From a virus (Duplodnaviria; Heunggongvirae; Uroviricota; Caudoviricetes), in the IMG/VR virus record IMGVR_UViG_2778261428_000002: a DNA stretch of 31,495 bases, one strand, 5' to 3'. Both the position numbers and the translations under genes were made by a program. The notes below the pieces were generated by a model. The model searched no databases. It was not told where the DNA came from and saw only the letters and a program-made list of their open reading frames with translations. Within the stretch, counting starts at the first letter, position 1, and every line of letters begins with the position of its first letter. This document shows, in pieces, positions 4,483 to 30,518 of the stretch.

Positions 4483-4570
4483 TGCCAGTACCTTTATTCA
4501 GGTAATACTTACCCGTCGCATAGACACGTTGTTTATGCGTTGTGGTTGTGAGTCTTTTATTTACTGAGCG

Positions 4571-4801
4571 TTACGCGATTTTCTGTTTTTGCAGAAATTG
4601 CCCGCGTGTGGATAGTGGTATGTGTATCTTAGGATTCGGGCAACCGCTCGGTACCACCGTTCCCATCACGGTTTCCATTGCGATAAATGAAAACGAACAG
4701 TTAACGTTTTTGCACTGGTAATAGAGCTTACGTACCAGCGGTGACATATATTCGCTGCTGCGAATTATCGCCTTACCGTCGCAGTGTGGGCATTTCATCA
4801 T
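4571..4801 (-). CDS. ogr: Ogr/Delta-family zinc-finger late transcription activator
   Basis: CPHCDGKA...YYQCKNVNCSFSF matches the Cys4 motif of P2 Ogr / P4 Delta. I moved the start to the ATG-ATG at 4801 (MMKCPHC), which has GGAGA 6 nt upstream; the ORF track start at 4819 has no RBS. Confidence 0.85.
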   Translation of the reverse strand: MMKCPHCDGKAIIRSSEYMSPLVRKLYYQCKNVNCSFSFIAMETVMGTVVPSGCPNPKIHIPLSTRGQFLQKQKIA

Positions 4802-4837
4802 GTCCTGTCTCCTTACCACTTTTAACTAACTGAAACA

Positions 4838-5044
4838 CTAACGCTTTTCGTTAACGGACTGACGAAATAGTGTGATGCCGTTCAAAAAAATGATTCTTGC
4901 CATGCTGGACATCGAACGGTTCTGATCCAGCGCTAATGCTTCCAGTTCCGCGATTTCAGCGGGGAGCAGGCGCATTGCCACCGGTTTGTTCGACATCACC
5001 CCGCGAGGCGCTCTTGAGCGTAAGACGTTCTCATTTGTTTTCAT
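4838..5044 (-). CDS. Small putative DNA-binding regulator, first gene of the early lytic operon (Cox/Apl-like position)
   Basis: 68-aa ORF divergent from the HTH repressor gene and immediately upstream of ogr-like and primase genes. Start uncertain (Met 1, 17 or 24). Confidence 0.45.
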   Translation of the reverse strand: MKTNENVLRSRAPRGVMSNKPVAMRLLPAEIAELEALALDQNRSMSSMARIIFLNGITLFRQSVNEKR

Positions 5045-5124
5045 GGTGGTATATTGTGGTTATTAACATTACACAATCTATAATTCCCTCAATTGAGTGA
5101 ATTGTCAATGGTAATTATATCCAA
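5045..5124. promoter_or_regulatory. Divergent switch region between early-operon regulator and HTH repressor gene
   Basis: 80-bp AT-rich gap between divergent starts. Contains TTGTG-N13-CACAA and repeated CAATTG/GAATTG motifs that could be operators. Promoter elements not resolved. Confidence 0.4.
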
Positions 5125-5460
5125 ATGAAAGAATTTGGCATCCGTTTGAAGGAAGAACGTATCCGACTTGGACTTGATCAAGACGGCTTTGGACAACTTG
5201 GGGGCGTGAAGAAAAACGCACAAAGCAACTATGAGAATGGGTTGCGCAAGCCGGACAGTGACTATCTTGCTGGCATAGCGGCAGCGGGAGTTGATGTTCT
5301 GTATGTTCTAACAGGCAACCGCACGCCTGTGGTTACGTTGTCCAATAAAGAGAGTGTGTTGGTGGAAAACTATCGTTCTGCTACGCCAGAACACCAGTCC
5401 ACCCTTGACACGGTTAGCGCTGCGCTTGCGCAACCGATGAATTGTCGAAAAGTACAATGA
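5125..5460 (+). CDS. XRE-family helix-turn-helix repressor (prophage C/CI-like, or cassette regulator)
   Basis: 111 aa. N-terminal HTH_XRE pattern (IRLKEERIRLGLDQDGFGQLGGVKKNAQSNYENGLRKPDSDYLAGIAAAGVDVLYVLTG). Divergent from the early operon. Confidence 0.75.
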   Translation: MKEFGIRLKEERIRLGLDQDGFGQLGGVKKNAQSNYENGLRKPDSDYLAGIAAAGVDVLYVLTGNRTPVVTLSNKESVLVENYRSATPEHQSTLDTVSAALAQPMNCRKVQ

Positions 5461-5491
5461 TTTATTAATTTCAGCTTATTAGGGAGTAATT

Positions 5492-6580
5492 ATGGCAAAT
5501 GTCGGCTTTTCTTTTGAGGGGGTGATGATTGAAAGAATTATTGCTCATCGAATCTTCCCAAGGTCTCCCGATAAGCAAATGGTTCCACCTAAGTTAAGTA
5601 ATCAGTTAATAACGTTAGAACAAGATGCTTTGGATGCACTACAGGTTCGTATAACAGAAGCCTTAGGTAATAAATCTCATGGCATTGAAATGTCTATCAC
5701 TGATACCGGTGATGATAGTTTTTTTGCACTGACAACGTCTGTACTACATGTTGAAGGCGAATCATTTATTAACGTATCTAAGCGATTGGCGCATAAGTTA
5801 ACAGAAGCTCAATATAGTGCGGGGAAGGTTTCCGGTGGTGTGTTAGTAATCATTACGGGAAAAATTGGTGAACAAGCCTGCCCATTCTTTGCTGTACTGC
5901 GTGCTGAAATGCAAAACGGATTTCGGACCAATGATACCCCAGAGAAAATAGCGATGGAGTATATTGCTGACTTATTACTTACACCAACTCAGCGGCTTTA
6001 TAAAATAGGAGTGTTGATTGAGTGTGAGTCAGGCCATGAATTGATTGATGGTCGTTGTGATACGCAATATTATCGTTCATTTTTATTTGATCACTTGATG
6101 ACATCGACGGAAACTAAAAATGCTGCGGGGTATTTTTACAGTGTTTTTCTTGGAATGGGGATCGAAAAATCCTCCAAGAAATTGACGCAGGATTTTTTTG
6201 AACATACTCGAAATTTCATTAATCAGGCTCCAGTTGATGAAGAAACTAAGTTTGATTTACACGAGTCATTACGTTCTGAACTGAGAAGTCAGAAAGCAAC
6301 TTTGAGTACCGCTTCGTTTGCTACGGAACATCTTCCTCAAGAATTACAGACGAGCTATCAGTCATTTATGGCTCAAAAAGGTTTTCCGCAGAATGCAGTG
6401 TCTAAAGATACTGATTATATTAAGAAAAAGCTTCGTCGTAGAAGTAAATTAGTGTTTACAAGCGATGTATGGATATCCATACCACCAGATCAAGTAAAAG
6501 AACTGGTACAGATTGAACAAACAGATGATGATGAGTCAACTACACTTAAAGTCAAAGGGCGGTTGAAAAGTCAAGAATGA
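5492..6580 (+). CDS. Hypothetical 362-aa protein, partner of the RSH-domain protein; function unknown
   Basis: AGGGAG RBS 8 nt upstream. AT-rich relative to the phage backbone. Stop overlaps the next start (ATGA). No catalytic motif recognised. A weak, memory-based resemblance to NA37/YejK nucleoid-associated proteins is unverified. Confidence 0.7.
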   Translation: MANVGFSFEGVMIERIIAHRIFPRSPDKQMVPPKLSNQLITLEQDALDALQVRITEALGNKSHGIEMSITDTGDDSFFALTTSVLHVEGESFINVSKRLAHKLTEAQYSAGKVSGGVLVIITGKIGEQACPFFAVLRAEMQNGFRTNDTPEKIAMEYIADLLLTPTQRLYKIGVLIECESGHELIDGRCDTQYYRSFLFDHLMTSTETKNAAGYFYSVFLGMGIEKSSKKLTQDFFEHTRNFINQAPVDEETKFDLHESLRSELRSQKATLSTASFATEHLPQELQTSYQSFMAQKGFPQNAVSKDTDYIKKKLRRRSKLVFTSDVWISIPPDQVKELVQIEQTDDDESTTLKVKGRLKSQE

Positions 6581-7578
6581 TGAGTATAGAGGATTTTAGA
6601 CGTTATCTGGTTGAAAACCATGCTGCTTATGAAGCATGGGGTAAACATATTGCGTCTGAAATCAATGCGGCTTTGATTGAACAACTTGGTGAAGGGGCCG
6701 CCCAGCTCTTCATCAAGGTACCACCCACTCCGAGAGTTAAAGGTATCGAGTCCGCATTAGGGAAGGTTGGTCGTAAAGGTTATAACAACCCTGTTCAGCA
6801 GATGACGGATCTCGTTGGCGTTCGTTTTGTCGTTTTACTTTCTGAAGATATTGAGACAATCTGTAAAATCATTCAGAATAATGAACAATGGATAGCTGTT
6901 GTTTCTAAAGATTATCAGGATGAAATAGAGGTAAACCCTAAACTATTTGATTATCAATCAAAGCATTTTGAAATAAGGCCAAAGATAAATAGCGTTATAT
7001 CGGGAGTTAATATTACAACTGATATGTGCTGTGAAGTACAAATTAGAACATTATTGCAGCATGCGTATGCAGAATTAGTTCATGATAGCGTTTATAAACC
7101 TGTTGGCCCAGTACCGAAAAAAGCGGAGCGCCAAATTGCGCGTAGTATGGCTTTGATGGAAACAACAGATGAATTATTTTGTAATACAATGCGGCTTTTA
7201 TGTGATACTAATAAACCAAGAAATGATTTTTTAAAGGAGTTAAAAGATTTTTATATAAATAAAATTGGGAGACAGTATTTAAATCAGGAAGATAAAATAA
7301 ATTATTGTTTTTTAGATGAGTATAGGTCGTTTATACAAGAAGATCTTTTGACTAATCTAATCGACCTTCTTGATAAGAAAAAATATATATCATATAAAAT
7401 CCAACAAAGGGCTACTGCCAATCTTTTTTTTGCGCAGCCAGTGGTCATTTTTACTTACTGGCTGGCAATAAATGAAGACAGTAATAAATTACAGCAAGAA
7501 TGGCCGTTACCTGGATATTTGAACGAATTGAGAATGATTTTAAGTGATGTTGGTGTAAGTAGCGGTATTGGATATTAA
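6577..7578 (+). CDS. RelA/SpoT-homologue (RSH) nucleotidyltransferase-domain protein, small alarmone synthetase / toxSAS-like
   Basis: 333 aa. Synthetase motifs in order: PRVKGIESALGKVGRKG, MTDLVGVRFVV (DxxGxR), DYQ...FDYQSKHFEI, CCEVQIRTLLQHAYAELVH (ExQxRT...H.aE). C-terminal ~140 aa is Lys-rich and very AT-rich. Stop converges on gene D with a 4-bp overlap. Confidence 0.75.
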   Translation: MMSIEDFRRYLVENHAAYEAWGKHIASEINAALIEQLGEGAAQLFIKVPPTPRVKGIESALGKVGRKGYNNPVQQMTDLVGVRFVVLLSEDIETICKIIQNNEQWIAVVSKDYQDEIEVNPKLFDYQSKHFEIRPKINSVISGVNITTDMCCEVQIRTLLQHAYAELVHDSVYKPVGPVPKKAERQIARSMALMETTDELFCNTMRLLCDTNKPRNDFLKELKDFYINKIGRQYLNQEDKINYCFLDEYRSFIQEDLLTNLIDLLDKKKYISYKIQQRATANLFFAQPVVIFTYWLAINEDSNKLQQEWPLPGYLNELRMILSDVGVSSGIGY

Positions 7579-14173: not shown

Positions 14174-14196
14174 CTTGTAACCACAGGCACTACAAG
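14174..14196 (-). promoter_or_regulatory. Late-promoter dyad CTTGTAA-N10-TACAAG upstream of FI
   Basis: Near-perfect 23-bp inverted repeat, centre about 83 nt upstream of the FI start. Same motif occurs three more times. Confidence 0.6.
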
Positions 14197-14208: not shown

Positions 14209-14967
14209 TTAATTCAGGATAATCAGTTCTGATGTAGCGCTGGCTGGCTTTCCGCCTACGGTATAGCGAATCCCTACCGTTGAGAATGTCAGGCCGTGGA
14301 AGATATCGCGCATTTCCGGGATGTCGTTAACCGAGATAATCATCCGGCCCTGCATGGTGCGCGCCAGCTCTGCCATACGCTGGTACTGCTCAAGGCCAAA
14401 CGGTACGCCGTAGCCTTCGGTTTTCCAGTATGGCGGGTCGCAGTAGAACAGGGTATGCGGGCGGTCATAGCGGCGAATACAGTCGGCCCAGTCCAGATTT
14501 TCAATACAGACGCGCGCCAGCCGCAGATGGGCGGCGGATAAATCTTCCTCCATACGCAGCAGGTTCAGGCGTGGCGGTGAGGTGGTGGCGGTACCGAACG
14601 TGCGGCTTTCCACCTTGCCGCCGAACGCCAGCTTTTGCAGATAGTAGAAGCGCGCCGCGCGCTGGATGTCGGTCAGCGTTTCTTCCGGGGTGATCTGGAG
14701 CCAGCGGTACATTTCGCGGCTGACCAGCGACCATTTAAACTGGCGGACAAACTCTTCTAAATGGTGCTGGAGTACCCGGTAGAGGTTGGTAACGTCACCG
14801 TTGATATCATTCAGCACCTCGGCCTGAGCGGGGCGTTTCATAAAGAACAGCGCCGCCGCTCCGCAAAATGGCTCGACGTAACAGCGGTGTTCAGGAAACA
14901 GCGGCAGGATGTGTTTCGCCAGTCGGCGTTTGCCGCCGATCCACGGAATAACGGGTAACGTATTCAT
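14209..14967 (-). CDS. dam: DNA adenine methyltransferase (Dam-like, N6-adenine)
   Basis: 252 aa. SAM-binding FCGAAALFF and catalytic DPPY (YCDPPYWKTEGY). Sits between tail-fibre genes and FI. Confidence 0.85.
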   Translation of the reverse strand: MNTLPVIPWIGGKRRLAKHILPLFPEHRCYVEPFCGAAALFFMKRPAQAEVLNDINGDVTNLYRVLQHHLEEFVRQFKWSLVSREMYRWLQITPEETLTDIQRAARFYYLQKLAFGGKVESRTFGTATTSPPRLNLLRMEEDLSAAHLRLARVCIENLDWADCIRRYDRPHTLFYCDPPYWKTEGYGVPFGLEQYQRMAELARTMQGRMIISVNDIPEMRDIFHGLTFSTVGIRYTVGGKPASATSELIILN

Positions 14968-15431
14968 ATTGTCAATTTTCCAGACCGACTGCTGACCAAC
15001 GCATACAGCAGATTAGGCGACCAGCGCCAGCTATCGCGCAGGTGCAGAAATTCGGCGCAGAACTCGCTGCAAAACAGGCGTTCCTGTTTGCCCTGACTGA
15101 GTAACACAAAACCCATGGCGCCCAGCCAGTCGTAACCTTTATCGTCATGCTGACGAAAAAAGGTTTCCAGTGCCAGCGGATCGGCGTTGATCGGGAGTAA
15201 ATCCCATTTCTCAATCGGCAGCGGCATTCGTTTGCTGCGCACGCCTTTATCCCGTACCGATGATGAGTAACAGATAAACAGGCCATCCGGCTGGCGTTCG
15301 ACCAGTTCGCAGTGAGAGTAAGGGCCGCGCGTGACCTGTCGAGTCAGCCAGTCGGAGAGCCGGGCAAGGCTGAAAAAGCGTTCAGCCCGGCCACGGTAGA
15401 ACGCCGCGTAAACCTGACTCATGGTTGCCAT
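14964..15431 (-). CDS. Hypothetical Cys/His-containing protein co-transcribed with dam; possible permuted papain-like hydrolase
   Basis: 155 aa. Stop overlaps the dam start. YSHCE and FCSEFC motifs (His before Cys). Fold assignment is speculative. Confidence 0.55.
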   Translation of the reverse strand: MATMSQVYAAFYRGRAERFFSLARLSDWLTRQVTRGPYSHCELVERQPDGLFICYSSSVRDKGVRSKRMPLPIEKWDLLPINADPLALETFFRQHDDKGYDWLGAMGFVLLSQGKQERLFCSEFCAEFLHLRDSWRWSPNLLYALVSSRSGKLTI

Positions 15432-19149: not shown

Positions 19150-19496
19150 GAACGTCTCCTGTCGATCGGAATGGAGAATGTCCACGGCTGGCCGGGGATA
19201 TCGGTACGTTCGGCTTCAATGGTGACGCTGAGATCGGCATTATCCGCAGCAAAGTCCACGCCGATAATCTCGATGCGAGGTTCCCAGCGCGTCAGCGCCA
19301 TGACCACCGCCGACATCACCCGTAGCCGGGTAGCGCCATCGTTGGGCTGGTCGATCAGGTTGCCGACCAGTGAGCCATAATCGCGGCGCATCACGCGCGT
19401 ACCTACTGGTGTGGTCAGAATGTCTTTTACGGATTGCTTAATGTGCAACTCATCGCTTAATGCTCTGCCGGTTTCGGCGTTCATACCGAGGTACAT
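19146..19496 (-). CDS. W: Baseplate protein W (gpW/GPW-gp25 family)
   Basis: 116 aa in the conserved V-W-J-I order. Confidence 0.85.
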   Translation of the reverse strand: MYLGMNAETGRALSDELHIKQSVKDILTTPVGTRVMRRDYGSLVGNLIDQPNDGATRLRVMSAVVMALTRWEPRIEIIGVDFAADNADLSVTIEAERTDIPGQPWTFSIPIDRRRS

Positions 19497-20095
19497 TACT
19501 GCGGTCCTCCGGTATTGCTACCCCCGCGCTCCACGCCTGTATGCGTATGGGTATGGACGGTGACGCCGTTAGAGGTAAAGCTGCCGCCGCTGTGGGTGTA
19601 AGCGCCTTTAAGCGTGCCGCCTTTTTTAACCGACAGCGTGGCGGTTTCCAGATGCTGAGTGCAGACGACGAGCGGTGTATCCAGCGTGACGCGGGTGCTG
19701 GCTTCGACCAGTGCGGTTTTGATGCCGGTCGCTTTTAACGCGCTGGAGCGCGGATCGTATTCAATCACCGCACCATCGGGGTAAACGCTATGGTGAACCT
19801 GTTCATCCAGCAGCGGGGCGGGGCTGGCGTCAGAGTAAATGGCCGGAAGCGCCACGGCGGTGGTTAACTCTCCGCTTAAACAGAGCAGTAACACCTGCTC
19901 GCCTGTTGATGGCCGCCACCACGTCCGGGCATCATCGGCGCGTAGCGTCAGCCATGGTATCCAGTTGGTGGTCAGTTCACCAGTGTGAATGCGTACTCGA
20001 TCGCCCTTCACCTCTTCAACGGTGCCGGTACGGATCAGGTTCTCTATGCGCCGGTGCAGTTCGGCGAGGTTGGCTGGGTGGTTTGCGTCGCTCAT
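19496..20095 (-). CDS. V: Baseplate central spike/assembly protein V (gpV-like)
   Basis: Start set at ATG MSDANHPANLAEL; the ORF track start at 20125 is a TTG. C-terminal region resembles P2 V as I recall it (RVTLDTP.VVCT, KGGT). Confidence 0.85.
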   Translation of the reverse strand: MSDANHPANLAELHRRIENLIRTGTVEEVKGDRVRIHTGELTTNWIPWLTLRADDARTWWRPSTGEQVLLLCLSGELTTAVALPAIYSDASPAPLLDEQVHHSVYPDGAVIEYDPRSSALKATGIKTALVEASTRVTLDTPLVVCTQHLETATLSVKKGGTLKGAYTHSGGSFTSNGVTVHTHTHTGVERGGSNTGGPQ

Positions 20096-20139
20096 GCCGG
20101 AATCATTGGTATTCTGGCATGACAATGGTAGCTTTAACG

Positions 20140-20162
20140 CTTGTATTGTGGATTTTTACAAG
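20140..20162 (-). promoter_or_regulatory. Late-promoter dyad CTTGTAT-N10-TACAAG upstream of V
   Basis: 23-bp inverted repeat between the moron stop (20166) and the V start. Spacing to V is shorter than at the other three sites. Confidence 0.55.
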
Positions 20163-20165
20163 CGG

Positions 20166-20621
20166 TTAAATCCAGTGGATTTCGGTAACTTCAGGGTTCG
20201 CACAGCCTGTTTTAAGAGACACAAAAACGGCATATTTATAACCCAATTGTTCTTTAAACGCCTGCAGCTTGAGGAGGTCTTTTTCTCTGCCATTTCTTTG
20301 GTTGTTGGTCGATTTTTTCAGTTCGAACGCAATCAGGTTTTCATCGGTTCCTCGGTGGTGAACGATAATATCCGGGATAACATCACGTTCGCTTGCATTT
20401 CCGTTAGGTTCAACTGCGTAAATTAATCTTTTAACTGCATCCCCATTTCTATTGTATTCACAGTCTACATCCCATTCCGGGAAGTTATTTTCCAGATATC
20501 TACCCAAGCGGTTGGCGATAGCCCGTTCACTATTATCTGTAATCAGCAAATGAGCATCGTTACGCAAAAGTTCATTGATAGCGGCTCGCGTTGATTCTTC
20601 AACAGTATGTTGATTAGGCAT
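20166..20621 (-). CDS. Moron: hypothetical 151-aa protein with possible PD-(D/E)xK nuclease-like motif
   Basis: AT-rich ORF between S and V (P2 orf30 position). AAGGA RBS. Residues VIPDIIVHH...IAFELKK give a D-x19-ExK pattern. Confidence 0.65.
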   Translation of the reverse strand: MPNQHTVEESTRAAINELLRNDAHLLITDNSERAIANRLGRYLENNFPEWDVDCEYNRNGDAVKRLIYAVEPNGNASERDVIPDIIVHHRGTDENLIAFELKKSTNNQRNGREKDLLKLQAFKEQLGYKYAVFVSLKTGCANPEVTEIHWI

Positions 20622-20660
20622 GGCAGGTAGTAATCCTTTTGAATATGAGAAAGTTTGTTA

Positions 20661-21110
20661 TTACACCGCTAAATATTGCATGATAATAGATTGAATTTGT
20701 AAATAATCTTGCTGAGAAAATCCCAGCAACTGCCTTTGTGCGTAATCCACCTCCAACCCGTAGCGATTTACCCGATCGCGCAGGCCATACTGATGAACGG
20801 CGGCCATATGTCGAACGCTGCTGAGAAACGAAATGGTTGCTCCCTGCCCATCGCCTTTCCCTTTCATATAGCGTGCGGTACGCAGCTTACGGAACATCTG
20901 GCGGCGGATCTTTCCTTTTTTACTGCGTAGCTGAGGCTTACGGGGGGCGAACGGTGAGCCATCCGGGTTTTTCTGTGCGGTTATCCGCTGGCTTTGCGAC
21001 TGACGCAGGCTGTGGGCGATTTCCCGCGCCAGTTGGGTTCGGCTTGCCGGGGAGAGCTTTGCAAGCAGGCCATCGGCCCAGCGGTGGAGTTGTTGCAGGT
21101 CGTCGCTCAT
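20661..21110 (-). CDS. S: Tail completion protein S (gpS-like)
   Basis: 149 aa in conserved order. 3' end is AT-rich. Confidence 0.8.
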   Translation of the reverse strand: MSDDLQQLHRWADGLLAKLSPASRTQLAREIAHSLRQSQSQRITAQKNPDGSPFAPRKPQLRSKKGKIRRQMFRKLRTARYMKGKGDGQGATISFLSSVRHMAAVHQYGLRDRVNRYGLEVDYAQRQLLGFSQQDYLQIQSIIMQYLAV

Positions 21111-21568
21111 CAGGTACTCACTATCGTTTCACCGCGACAGGCGATTTCCCAGCCATTGTAACCGCTTTCTGGCTGCTGGTCGTTACAGTGCTTTGCTTCC
21201 AGCCCGCCGTCGCGCGGGCGCACAATGACGCGCTCGGTCAGCGCCAGCTTGATGCTGATATCGTAACTTTGGTGGTCGATGGCTTCGGCTTCAAACTGAA
21301 ATGCCTGCTGGCGCAGATCGCTGTTGGCGAAGGCTTCCTGCTGGTGAAGCGACATCCAGCCGACCAGCGGCACCATCAGCGTATCGGGATCGGCGGCGTA
21401 GTCGGTGATCAACAGTTCCAGCGTGTACTGGTATTCAAAACTGGTGCTGCGCCCTGCGGTGGCGACGATCCGGCCCTTATTGATAAAGACCCGCAGCGCG
21501 TCCGGGTTGTGTTGTAAGTGCGGGATACTGGCGGTCAGTAGTTCACGGATGAGCTGCGCTTTGTGCAT
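21110..21568 (-). CDS. R: Tail completion protein R (gpR-like)
   Basis: 152 aa, conserved position upstream of S. Confidence 0.8.
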   Translation of the reverse strand: MHKAQLIRELLTASIPHLQHNPDALRVFINKGRIVATAGRSTSFEYQYTLELLITDYAADPDTLMVPLVGWMSLHQQEAFANSDLRQQAFQFEAEAIDHQSYDISIKLALTERVIVRPRDGGLEAKHCNDQQPESGYNGWEIACRGETIVST

Positions 21569-23644: not shown

Positions 23645-23667
23645 CTTGTAACTGAGGGCAGTACAAG
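23645..23667 (-). promoter_or_regulatory. Late-promoter dyad CTTGTAA-N10-TACAAG upstream of X
   Basis: 23-bp inverted repeat, centre about 84 nt upstream of the X start, just downstream of the island's small minus-strand genes. Confidence 0.6.
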
Positions 23668-24336: not shown

Positions 24337-24516
24337 GTGTCAACCATTTCTATTCAAGGCAAAGGCAGTAAGCAAATCGCGTTACGAGTAGATCCTGCTC
24401 TTGAGGCCGGAATTCAGCAGGCACTTAAAGCTGATGGTGATGCCTCTGTTTCCGCGTGGATTAAGCGAATTATCAGGAAAGAGCTTCAGTCACGAGGCAT
24501 TGAAACAAAAGATTAG
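24337..24516 (+). CDS. Ribbon-helix-helix (Arc/CopG-like) DNA-binding protein, GTG start
   Basis: 59 aa, not in the ORF track because it starts with GTG. AGGAG RBS 7 nt upstream. KQIALRVDPALEAGIQQALKADG...WIKRIIRKEL fits a strand-helix-helix pattern. Confidence 0.6.
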   Translation: MSTISIQGKGSKQIALRVDPALEAGIQQALKADGDASVSAWIKRIIRKELQSRGIETKD

Positions 24517-24562
24517 CAGATAGGTATATACTTTTAATAAAGAGTATTAGAGGTAAAAAATA

Positions 24563-24751
24563 ATGGCGAAGAATAGCAGTCCTGCCAGCCGATACGGTAT
24601 CAAGGTCGTAAAAAGAGACAGTATGAGTGGGCAGTTCGTACCCGTCGAAATGAAACTGGACGGCCCGGAAGGTGAGCGTGTGATTAAAAAGTCGGCAGAA
24701 CGTATTTATGCCAGACACAACAAAGTCATTAAGGCGCTGGCTAACCGATGA
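24563..24751 (+). CDS. Putative antitoxin partner of Doc (family not recognised)
   Basis: 62 aa with GAGGT RBS. Stop overlaps the doc start (ATGA). Confidence 0.55.
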   Translation: MAKNSSPASRYGIKVVKRDSMSGQFVPVEMKLDGPEGERVIKKSAERIYARHNKVIKALANR

Positions 24752-25125
24752 TTGATGCACATTTGGTGATTGGAATTCACGATTTTATTCTTGCTCATGA
24801 GCCGGGATTGGTTGGTTATCAGGATGCTGGCCGGGTCGAGGCAACACTGGCGCGGGTGGATAACCGTATTCTGTATGAGCAGATGAATGATATTTTCCAG
24901 ATCGCCGCATCTTATGCGGTTGCCATCGCCAGAGGGCACGTTTTTGCTGATGCCAACAAGCGAACGGCACTGGTGACGGCGTTGACATACCTTGATATGC
25001 AGGGTGTGAACCTCAAGCGAACACAAAAGCTGGAAGATATTATGGTGGATGTGGCTGAGGGAACGCTGAATCTGGATGATTTAGCCGATATTTTCTATAC
25101 CCTTAGTGATGTAAATGCTTCCTGA
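24748..25125 (+). CDS. doc: Doc (death-on-curing) / Fic-family toxin
   Basis: 125 aa. Fic/Doc active-site motif HVFADANKRT (HxFx(D/N)(A/G)NKR). Confidence 0.85.
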   Translation: MIDAHLVIGIHDFILAHEPGLVGYQDAGRVEATLARVDNRILYEQMNDIFQIAASYAVAIARGHVFADANKRTALVTALTYLDMQGVNLKRTQKLEDIMVDVAEGTLNLDDLADIFYTLSDVNAS

Positions 25126-28651: not shown

Positions 28652-28674
28652 CTTGTAATCATCCGGGTTACAAG
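28652..28674. promoter_or_regulatory. Late-promoter dyad CTTGTAA-N10-TACAAG in the O/P divergent intergenic region
   Basis: Perfect 23-bp inverted repeat, centre about 84 nt from the O start and 72 nt from the P start. A degenerate half-site lies nearer P. Confidence 0.6.
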
Positions 28675-28734: not shown

Positions 28735-30518
28735 ATGCCGCCAGACATCGAAAAACATCTGCTTGCCCTTCAGGATGAAGATCCACGCCGCAAAGCCCGC
28801 TATCTGTACTGGCAGGGTTTTCGCATCGCGCGGATCGCCGAACTGTTGGGGGTGAAAGTTACCACGCTGCATAGCTGGAAGCGGCGCGACGGCTGGGATG
28901 AATCCGCCCCGCTGGAGCGGGTGACGGCGGTGACCGAGGCGCGTCTGATCCAGCTCACGGTGAAGGAAAATAAAGAGGGGAAGGATTTTAAGGAGATCGA
29001 CCTGCTCTGGCGGCAGATGGAGCGCGGGGCAAGGGTTGAACGCTATCAGCAGGGAGGCAATGAGGTCGACCTGAATCCTGCTCTTGCGAAGCGTAACGCC
29101 GGGCCGCGCAGACAGCCGGAAACCAACCATATCAGCGAGGAGCAGGCGGAGAAGCTGAAACAGCTATTTCTGGACGGGCTGTATCCGCACCAGAAACACT
29201 GGTACCGCGCCGGACTGGAACACCGTATCCGCGATATCAACAAGTCGCGCCAGATTGGGGCGACGATGTTCTTCGGGCGGGAAGGGTTTATGGATGCGGT
29301 GGAAAGTGGGCGCAACCAGATCTTTCTCTCTGCTTCCAAAGCGCAGGCGCACCAGTCCGCCAGTACATTGTCGATTTTGCTCGTGAGGCGGATGTTGAGC
29401 TGAAAGGCGAAGTCATTCACCTGCCGCATAATGATAGCCGGATGTATTTTCTCGGCACTAATGCCCGCACCGCCCAGACCTATCATGGCAACCTGTATCT
29501 GGATGAATACTTCTGGATACACCGCTTTCTGGAACTGCGCCGTAACGCGGCGGGGATGGCCAGCCAGAAGCGCTGGCGGCAAACCTACTTCTCCACGCCG
29601 TCCAGCATCACCCATGAAGCCTATAAGTTCTGGACAGGGCAACTGTTCAACAAGGGCAGGCCGAAGAGCGAACAGATTCGACTGGATATCAGCCATCGGG
29701 CGCTGTCGGCAGGGCGGTTGTGTGAAGACGGCCAGTGGCGGCAAATCGTCACCGTTGAGGATGCCATCAATCAGGGTTATGACCTGTTCGACCTTGAGCA
29801 ACTCAGGCTGGAGAACTCGCCGGAAGAGTTCGCCAACCTGTTTATGTGCCAGTTTATTGACGATACCGCATCGGTATTCCCGCTCAGCATGTTGCAGGGT
29901 TGCATGGTCGATAGCTGGGAAGTCTGGGACGACTACAAGCCGTTTGCCCTGCGTCCGCTCGGCGAACGCTCGGTATGGGTGGGCTACGATCCGGCGTTAA
30001 GCGGCGACAGCGCCGGATGCGTGGTGGTCGCGCCGCCGGTCATTGAGGGCGGCAAGTTTCGGGTAATTGAAAAGCACCAGTGGCACGGGATGGACTTCGC
30101 GGCGCAGGCGGAAAATATCCGCAAAATTACCGAGCGCTATAACGTGACTTACATCGGTATTGACGTGACCGGCATCGGCCACGGCGTGCATCAACTGGTG
30201 AAACAGTTCTTCCCGGCAGTGCAGGCATTCTCTTATTCCCCAGAAGTGAAACAGCGTCTGGTGCTGAAAACGCTGGACGTTGTCCGTAAACGCCGACTGG
30301 AGTTTGACGCCGGATGGACGGATCTGGCGCAGGCATTTATGGCGATCCGCAAAACCCTGACTCCGTCCGGGCGTCAGGTAACCTTCGAGGCCAGCCGTTC
30401 GGAAGAAGTCTCCCACGCGGATCTGGCATGGGCGTGTATGCACGCCATTATCAATGAACCACTGGAAAGCTCCGGCGGCGCGAACAGCGGGCGGGGCTTA
30501 ATTAAGGTGTACGGATGA
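28735..30518 (+). pseudogene. P: Terminase large (ATPase) subunit P (gpP-like), interrupted by a frameshift
   Basis: Two adjacent ORFs in different frames (28735-29403 and 29442-30518) together cover a full terminase. The second frame reads [21 protein letters not shown] through the first ORF's stop. Total length is 3n-1, so a 1-nt loss near 29350-29362. Confidence 0.7.

Follow-up and report, generated by a model that had tools for sequence, protein, structure and literature searches.

The closest experimentally validated relative of the gene described here is a component of PD-lambda-3, a system obtained from strain ECOR28 by selecting against lambda (Vassallo et al. 2022, PMC9519451). According to the tables of that study, PD-lambda-3 consists of three proteins encoded over 2,759 bp, and in the available portions of the paper HHpred gave A a remote PD-(D/E)xK similarity, B an AbiJ_NTD3 region with a Hypoth_Ymh HEPN domain, and C a beta-propeller (PMC9519451). 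The accessible text of that paper and of a later one describes the full system as protecting against lambda by abortive infection (PMC9519451; PMC13190303), and the later paper used it as an abortive-infection control (PMC13190303). The complete system has been reported in Proteobacteria only. The available text reports no requirement for A within PD-lambda-3; thus, homology to A alone is not proof of a role in defense.

The position of the gene likewise has a described counterpart. P2-like phages have three variable regions of horizontal origin, one of which is the orf30 region (PMC3091744; PMC6823313), and in phage P2 itself orf30 lies between genes S and V (AF063097 annotation). The P2 genes old, tin, and fun are exclusion or defense genes, and recent surveys of defense hotspots named Q-A (old/tin), Z/fun, and D-cI but not S-V.

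We analyzed a 31,495-nucleotide stretch of DNA (the window), which is a P2-like E. coli prophage; from 7629 to 31495, it matches a prophage of strain GMF054 at 99.96% identity. Its S-V slot holds a single open reading frame (ORF) on the minus strand (20166 to 20621, ATG to TAA, 151 amino acids [aa]). Upstream lies gene S (20661 to 21110, minus strand; tail completion or virion morphogenesis; Pfam Phage_tail_S, E = 1.1e-38), itself preceded by a P2_Phage_GpR gene, and downstream lies gene V, which encodes the baseplate spike gpV (19496 to 20095, minus strand; Pfam Phage_base_V, Phage_spike, and Apex). We took V to start at the ATG at 20095 (199 aa), as PGAP and our calls in loci L001 to L004 do, which leaves a 70-nt gap between the ORF and V. 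The ORF has a GC content of 0.417 and a third-position GC content (GC3) of 0.382, compared to 0.54 to 0.60 and 0.59 to 0.72, respectively, for genes H, I, J, W, V, S, and R and the lysis genes. In 300-nt intervals, GC content is 0.39 to 0.43 across 20150 to 20749 and about 0.58 on either side. The composition of the ORF is foreign, and the initial annotation, which had described a 151-aa gene of lower GC content at the P2 orf30 position, is confirmed.

PGAP labels the product a hypothetical protein. Homologs of the 151-aa protein, with E values down to 1e-41, occur in many phyla, and comparison with an 83%-identical copy in a diverged prophage (L007) gave a dN/dS ratio of 0.25, whereas S and V each gave 0.09 for the same pair. 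These data show that the ORF is a real gene rather than a chance reading frame, and the ratio points to purifying selection that is looser than that on the structural genes S and V.

The slot that this gene occupies is exchanged as a cassette. Roughly 600 bp, from about 20110 to about 20710, are swapped for unrelated cargo in otherwise collinear prophages that are 80 to 98% identical. Relatives found through S contain at this site nothing (a 76-bp gap), HicA/HicB, a Gp49-like toxin with an HI1420-type antidote, RelE with a helix-turn-helix (HTH) protein, AbiTii, an aerolysin toxin with an insertion sequence (IS) fragment, or small proteins of unknown function. The gene is dispensable, since close relatives with 95 to 97% identical flanks hold unrelated cargo or none. 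The prophage lineage was present in 4 of 5,426 complete E. coli genomes, and its S-V cargo was AbiTii in two, HicAB in one, and the nuclease gene in only one, making the last a rare cargo. The exact 151-aa protein was present in 392 index blocks of an assembly collection; every contig read placed it in the S-V location of the same prophage, and its solo arrangement was identical in all contigs sampled. The L007 copy is also solo and occupies the same place. When the S-V region was compared by megablast with 50,697 phage records, no match was obtained.

Alignment located both edges of the exchanged module. Among related prophages, S homology stops after ...QRQLLGFS, at about 20710, in every cargo type. 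Beyond this point, the AT-rich last 15 or so codons of S (20661 to 20710, minus strand; ...DYLQIQSIIMQYLAV) form the left junction and move with the cargo; GC content is 0.24 over the final 45 nt of S, and this AT-rich tail is common to the window and L007, which carry the same cargo. On the other side, the stretch from the dyad to the V leader (20110 to 20132, minus strand) varies by cargo type in an alignment of V upstream regions, and homology resumes at about 20109 with CCAATGATTCCGGC-ATG, 14 nt before the V start codon. Thus, both the last 15 or so S codons and the pV region are specific to the cargo type, except that the dyad arms are preserved. The initial annotation had proposed an inserted module on the basis of an AT-rich tract that reaches into the 3' end of S; the tract is there, and the cargo exchange across related prophages, with shared breakpoints at about 20710 and 20109, supports the insertion. 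A terminator-like hairpin inside S (20709 to 20729, minus strand; 9-bp stem, weak T tail) sits exactly at the S homology breakpoint and could represent either a landmark for recombination or what is left of a terminator. The slot of a P2-like prophage that is more distant and has a flanking GC content of 0.67 (L015, 4633 to 5943) contains a gene for a 436-aa aerolysin-family pore-forming toxin (Pfam E = 7e-68), which adjoins a possible IS or transposase fragment recognized by eye; thus, the S-V slot also holds virulence-type cargo.

Like the P2 morons orf30, Z/fun, tin, and old, the gene is AT rich, nonessential, and located in a classical variable region, and it shares with orf30 the slot between S and the pV activator site. 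In P2, however, orf30 is antisense, follows the O-operon terminator, and encodes a 261-aa product, whereas the window gene is in the sense orientation and follows no terminator. Homology between the two products was ruled out (BLASTP E = 6.9). The AbiTii, HicAB, and RelE-type modules of sister prophages share the slot, the junctions, and the cassette-like exchange with the window gene; their proteins, however, are unrelated to the nuclease, and the toxin-antitoxin (TA) modules come with an antitoxin of their own and with a longer spacer that bears a promoter.

The stop codon of the ORF had been said to abut the V late-promoter dyad, and its TAA in fact overlaps the outer arm of that inverted repeat (20133 to 20169; TTTAACGCTTGTA at 20133 to 20145 and TACAAGCGGTTAA at 20157 to 20169). 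The core of the repeat, GCTTGTA-N11-TACAAGC, occurs exactly four times in the window (14175 to 14195, 20141 to 20161, 23646 to 23666, and 28653 to 28673), compared to about 0.5 matches to the eight specified bases of the core that we estimate by chance. All four copies are intergenic, three of them upstream of the sheath gene, V, and tail gene X, respectively, and the fourth between the divergent O and P genes, and each precedes a late operon. In the alignment, the dyad upstream of V is kept in all relatives regardless of cargo, and the P2 annotation places a pV activator-binding site at the equivalent position upstream of V (AF063097). Collectively, these observations justify naming the repeat the V late-promoter dyad. 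By our count, the TGT...ACA half-sites are 13 nt apart in the window dyads versus 11 nt in the annotated P2 site, which suggests that the Ogr/Delta-like activator of this lineage has a different spacing preference.

The 39-nt spacer between S and the ORF (20622 to 20660, minus strand) contains a purine-rich AAAGGA 12 nt before the ATG. Our promoter/terminator scan found no terminator in this spacer, so read-through from the upstream late operon is possible; around the ORF, the scan detected no consensus sigma-70 promoter or intrinsic terminator on the coding strand except for the weak hairpin at 20709 to 20729. A weak candidate sigma-70 promoter, TTTACA-17-TGCAAT (20675 to 20703, minus strand), lies inside the S 3' end and is identical in L007; the consensus scan missed it because its -10 hexamer lacks an A at position 2. 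This candidate could drive expression in the lysogen; in addition to it, or in its place, transcription of the late operon beginning at the 23646 dyad may read through into the ORF. Since the ORF lacks a consensus promoter and lies in late-gene orientation 39 nt after S with no intervening terminator, its expression may be confined to the late stage of the lytic cycle.

Three lines of evidence identify the product as a small nuclease-fold protein, as the initial annotation had suggested. An AlphaFold2 model built with an alignment of 86 family sequences (pLDDT 94.5, pTM 0.88) begins with three helices, after which come a mixed sheet and an alpha-beta-beta-beta-alpha-beta core, which is the core of the PD-(D/E)xK (restriction-endonuclease-like) superfamily. 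The best match among viral structure predictions (BFVD) is a PD-(D/E)XK nuclease. In addition, the alignment reveals a conserved motif, which differs in register from the one first proposed. The literal pattern D80-x19-E100-x-K102 is present as described, but D80 varies in the family (T, S, R, or N), and the conserved aspartate, invariant in 86 of 86 sequences, is D84, four residues on. The family signature is P83-D84-x15-E100-x-K102 (PD-x15-ExK), with E32 on the preceding helix. Invariant among the 86 sequences are E32, D53, E55, D84, I86, H88, N95, and E100; K102 (84 of 86), K103, P83, R58, R90, D115, and K118 are nearly so. We propose an active site comprising E32, D53, E55, D84, E100, and K102 in this single-domain protein. 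The nuclease fold is thus well supported by the model, and catalysis is predicted. At residue 37 (codon at about 20511 to 20513), the window protein has N and PD-lambda-3A has F, whereas H is found in 79 of the 86 family members; loss of this conserved histidine near the active-site helix may have occurred in the enterobacterial mobile-element clade.

Library searches gave few matches. In Pfam, only subthreshold similarity to Hjc (E = 0.039) and BsuBI_PstI_RE (E = 0.12) was seen, PHROGs gave a weak match to a Holliday-junction-resolvase family, none of the NCBIfam models matched, and a sequence profile search of the PDB found no relative. Relative to the restriction-endonuclease-like proteins PDB 3ijm, R.SwaI, Cas4 SSO0001, and Hjc, the window protein is only 8 to 19% identical, has an extra invariant "WDVDCEYNR" strand motif, and lacks a DNA-recognition or Fe-S domain. 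The sole match to a curated model was PADLOC PD-Lambda-3_A (E = 1.3e-38), which aligns residues 3 to 151 with positions 12 to 159 of a 159-position profile.

We compared the window with a three-gene operon on the E. coli IncHI1B plasmid NZ_ON934556 (NZ_ON934556.1, 43741 to 46499; L106), which has the layout and the 2,759-bp span of PD-lambda-3. Its A protein (159 aa) matches PD-Lambda-3_A (PADLOC E = 2e-100), its B protein, a 267-aa TIGR02391 protein, matches PD-Lambda-3_B (E = 1e-179), and its C protein is a 477-aa "restriction endonuclease" with an Mrr nuclease domain and a beta-propeller; PADLOC-DB 2.0 has PD-lambda-3 models for A and B only, and C gets no match. From the A and B matches and the span, we infer that this is the published operon; it lies a few kilobases from the BREX gene brxL. 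The window protein is 45% identical to plasmid A over its full length (E = 6e-40) and scores 130 bits against the PD-Lambda-3_A model, compared to 331 bits for the plasmid copy. The two share a small PD-(D/E)xK domain, with the motif placed as in the HHpred matches of the original authors, and both are carried by an E. coli mobile element. Unlike the A-B-C operon, however, the window gene is solo and sits at a prophage tail-gene junction rather than beside BREX on a plasmid.

Neither partner accompanies it. A tblastn search of the window found no B (AbiJ_NTD3 with Hypoth_Ymh/TIGR02391 HEPN), the S-V gap contains a single gene, and the window morons that we scanned encode no HEPN protein; no C (Mrr with beta-propeller) was found by tblastn in the window or at any other locus. 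The possibility that B and C are encoded elsewhere in the window was ruled out by these tblastn searches and scans. Nor did the other prophage loci or any of the 80 genome loci with family members contain either one. The only other trace of B was on a Klebsiella IncFII plasmid (L107, NZ_CP143509.1), where an IS5 interrupts it after residue 101 and A is effectively solo. With an A-type match and B and C absent, the window gene belongs to the PD-lambda-3 A family without constituting a PD-lambda-3 system.

The A family, for which neither Pfam nor NCBIfam offers a model, proved to be large. A profile search of 1.84 billion representative proteins recovered 5,932 clusters at 50% identity with E values of 1e-3 or lower and 1,289 with E values of 1e-30 or lower, nearly all of them single-domain proteins of 145 to 200 aa; in rare fusions, TPR repeats are appended at the C terminus or a HicB-like domain at the N terminus. 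When one genome per species was scanned for the motif, 139 carriers were found across many bacterial phyla and several archaeal lineages, and neighbors were clustered for 80 loci from these carriers. No universal partner gene emerged across the 80 loci, with no neighbor in more than 11, and the candidate partners that we compared (337 and 346 aa; 200 and 142 aa) were unrelated to each other. What recurs instead is the context: 17 of the 80 loci lie in restriction-modification (R-M) surroundings, as identified by PADLOC models and precomputed Pfam assignments. Eleven are within type I R-M operons (HsdM-X-HsdS-HsdR), and six are beside a Dcm methylase, Vsr, and a gene for a restriction endonuclease-like protein. 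Judged from the locus counts rather than from an enrichment statistic, this placement is far above chance. The members between hsdM and hsdS/hsdR (L039, L054, L058, L065, L067, L077, L088, L090, L094, L099, and L100; also L023) come from Actinobacteria, Bacteroidetes, Planctomycetes, Methanoregula, and others, and L054 has two copies in one operon. Copies are also present in 49 plasmid records, mostly of conjugative enterobacterial plasmids, and tblastn against the 50,697 phage records found one weak 32% match, on an unannotated contig.

Abi and toxin genes are known from within type I R-M operons, as with PrrC between hsdM and hsdS of EcoprrI, and placement between hsdM and hsdS/hsdR is typical of second-line Abi effectors. 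The 11 family members at that position resemble PrrC in this respect; unlike PrrC, which is an ABC-ATPase/anticodon nuclease, they have an unrelated nuclease fold, and the window copy has no R-M partner. The profile of the family is that of a mobile, defense-associated effector, normally without a fixed partner. None of the individual elements is of a new kind: P2 morons are known from the orf30 slot, PD-(D/E)xK proteins are a known class, and the homology is to a defense component already catalogued. Compared to the searchable literature, what is new is that the A-type nuclease forms a large, normally solo family that recurs in R-M operons and that it occurs alone in a prophage slot otherwise holding Abi and TA modules.

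The window contains further accessory regions. A second, larger AT-rich island (4500 to 7578; GC content, 0.32 to 0.47) lies between a Toprim primase-like gene and gpD, and its plus-strand genes (5125 to 5460, 5492 to 6580, and 6577 to 7578) encode an HTH protein, an NA37 nucleoid-associated-like protein (Pfam E = 9.5e-15), and a RelA_SpoT-like protein (Pfam E = 1.7e-18) that matches the PADLOC candidate PDC-S33 (E = 1e-13). At this site, the GMF054 prophage, elsewhere 99.96% identical, differs in its cargo (a DUF6037 protein, a nucleoid-associated protein, and a hypothetical protein), and the island is a candidate defense or toxSAS module. Between head-completion gene L and tail gene X is a moron (24473 to 25125) in which small ORFs lie upstream of an opposite-strand gene for a 125-aa Fic/Doc toxin (24748 to 25125) with the motif HVFADANKRTA; PGAP labels the GMF054 copy a death-on-curing toxin, and sister prophages have RelE/HTH or Gp49/HTH_37 at the L-X site. 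At the P2 Z/fun position, between the tail-fiber assembly and sheath genes, the minus strand encodes a D12-class Dam methylase (PADLOC MTase_II, E = 4e-114) and a 155-aa protein of unknown function (14209 to 15431); sister prophages whose S-V cargo differs have the two genes as well, which makes them part of the lineage backbone. Finally, the terminase ATPase (gpP) gene (28735 to 30518) has a 1-nt deletion relative to GMF054 (1,784 versus 1,785 nt, 99.94% identity) that introduces a stop at codon 222 and splits it into two ORFs (28735 to 29403 and 29442 to 30518), reflecting either a defective prophage or a sequencing error.

We consider the chance somewhat better than even that the ORF encodes an autonomous, metal-dependent PD-(D/E)xK nuclease that acts in defense or exclusion as a moron of the prophage. 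The prophage acquired the gene horizontally, in its S-V (orf30) slot. Under this hypothesis, the predicted catalytic core would combine the helix residue E32 with D84 on one strand and E100-x-K102 on the strand that follows, D53 and E55 being invariant as well, and the lysogen would most likely benefit through cleavage of the nucleic acid of superinfecting phages or, in the manner of abortive infection, of that of the infected cell itself. Expression would come from the weak promoter in the AT-rich S end, from late-operon read-through, or from both, and sparing of the host is assumed to depend on recognition of a particular structure, of a modification, or of a state induced by infection. Expression and self-sparing are the weakest links of this proposal. 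No antitoxin, immunity gene, or linked methylase lies near the ORF, which counts against a solo defense nuclease: the flanking gaps of only 39 and 70 nt contain no second ORF that could be a type II TA partner, the only Rfam match in 19900 to 21300 is a chance microRNA match (E = 0.72), and the only methyltransferase is the D12 Dam (14209 to 14967), 5 kb away. A split R-M system with this Dam was ruled out, because Dam, being present also in an AbiTii-carrying sister prophage that lacks the nuclease, is backbone rather than cargo. We also count against a defense role the asparagine at position 37, where 79 of 86 relatives have histidine, and the presence of this cargo in just 1 of 5,426 genomes.

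Several other explanations have to be weighed against a defense nuclease. That the nuclease instead serves the lytic cycle of the prophage, cotranscribed with the late X...R-S genes and degrading host or competitor DNA or resolving branched DNA before packaging, with no protection of the lysogen, is unlikely. The sense orientation after S does not discriminate between a lytic and a defense role, as AbiTii has the same orientation at that place in sister prophages, and the gene is dispensable, with other cargo or none in its place within 95 to 97% identical flanks. Moreover, most family members are chromosomal, many of them within R-M operons, and among the 50,697 phage records the family is limited to its single weak match. 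We place slightly lower the likelihood that the gene is a nonautonomous or vestigial part of a multigene system, either requiring PD-lambda-3 B and C encoded elsewhere or being an inert remnant. The only validated relative does work in a three-gene operon, a defense-annotation tool would flag this locus as an incomplete system, and H37 is replaced by N. On the other hand, the catalytic residues are all intact, the gene is under purifying selection, the complete system is confined to reports from Proteobacteria, and the absence of B and C from the window, the 80 genome loci, and the prophage loci suggests that the solo gene is the ancestral and normal state and the three-gene operon the exception.

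A selfish, free-standing homing-type endonuclease that cuts S-V junctions without the gene and coconverts the flanks would account for the foreign composition of a gene between two conserved genes, the cotransfer of the adjacent S 3' end, and the patchy phyletic distribution, and PD-(D/E)xK homing endonucleases are known. We nevertheless regard this as improbable: the S 3' end is also replaced along with TA and Abi cargos that encode no nuclease, which makes its coreplacement a property of the slot; just one of the four related prophages in complete E. coli genomes has the gene; and the family occurs in many unrelated contexts with no single cognate site. Least probable of all, with very little likelihood in our assessment, is an anti-defense factor that degrades a host immune component or signaling nucleotide. 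The initial annotation had raised both defense and anti-defense, and counter-defense genes are indeed also found in accessory slots of phages. The defense half of that suggestion gained support, with PADLOC PD-Lambda-3_A as the only curated match, while the anti-defense half acquired no specific support: the protein has no similarity to known anti-defense families, relatives of it sit within R-M operons of hosts from many phyla, the one characterized relative is part of a defense system, and the other cargo types of the S-V slot are TA and Abi modules.

A broader generalization is one that we put forward tentatively, as it is more doubtful than the defense role of the window gene itself. The roughly 150-aa proteins with the motifs "WDVDCEYNR," "PDIIVHHRG," and "ExKK" might constitute a widespread, single-gene, minimal immune nuclease that would need to tell phage nucleic acid apart, or detect infection, with no methylase, antitoxin, or sensor partner; PD-lambda-3 might have been derived from this family, and S-V might be an overlooked fourth defense hotspot of P2-like phages. 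If the gene proves inactive alone, PD-lambda-3A needs its partners, and homology to a single component is easily overread. If the solo gene does protect, tools that require all PD-lambda-3 components discard a large class of working single-gene nucleases. Such a nuclease, only 151 residues long, acting alone, and sparing its host, would then offer a very small and tractable model of self/nonself discrimination, and searches for new anti-phage genes could extend from the old/tin, Z/fun, and D-proximal hotspots to the S-V (orf30) junction.
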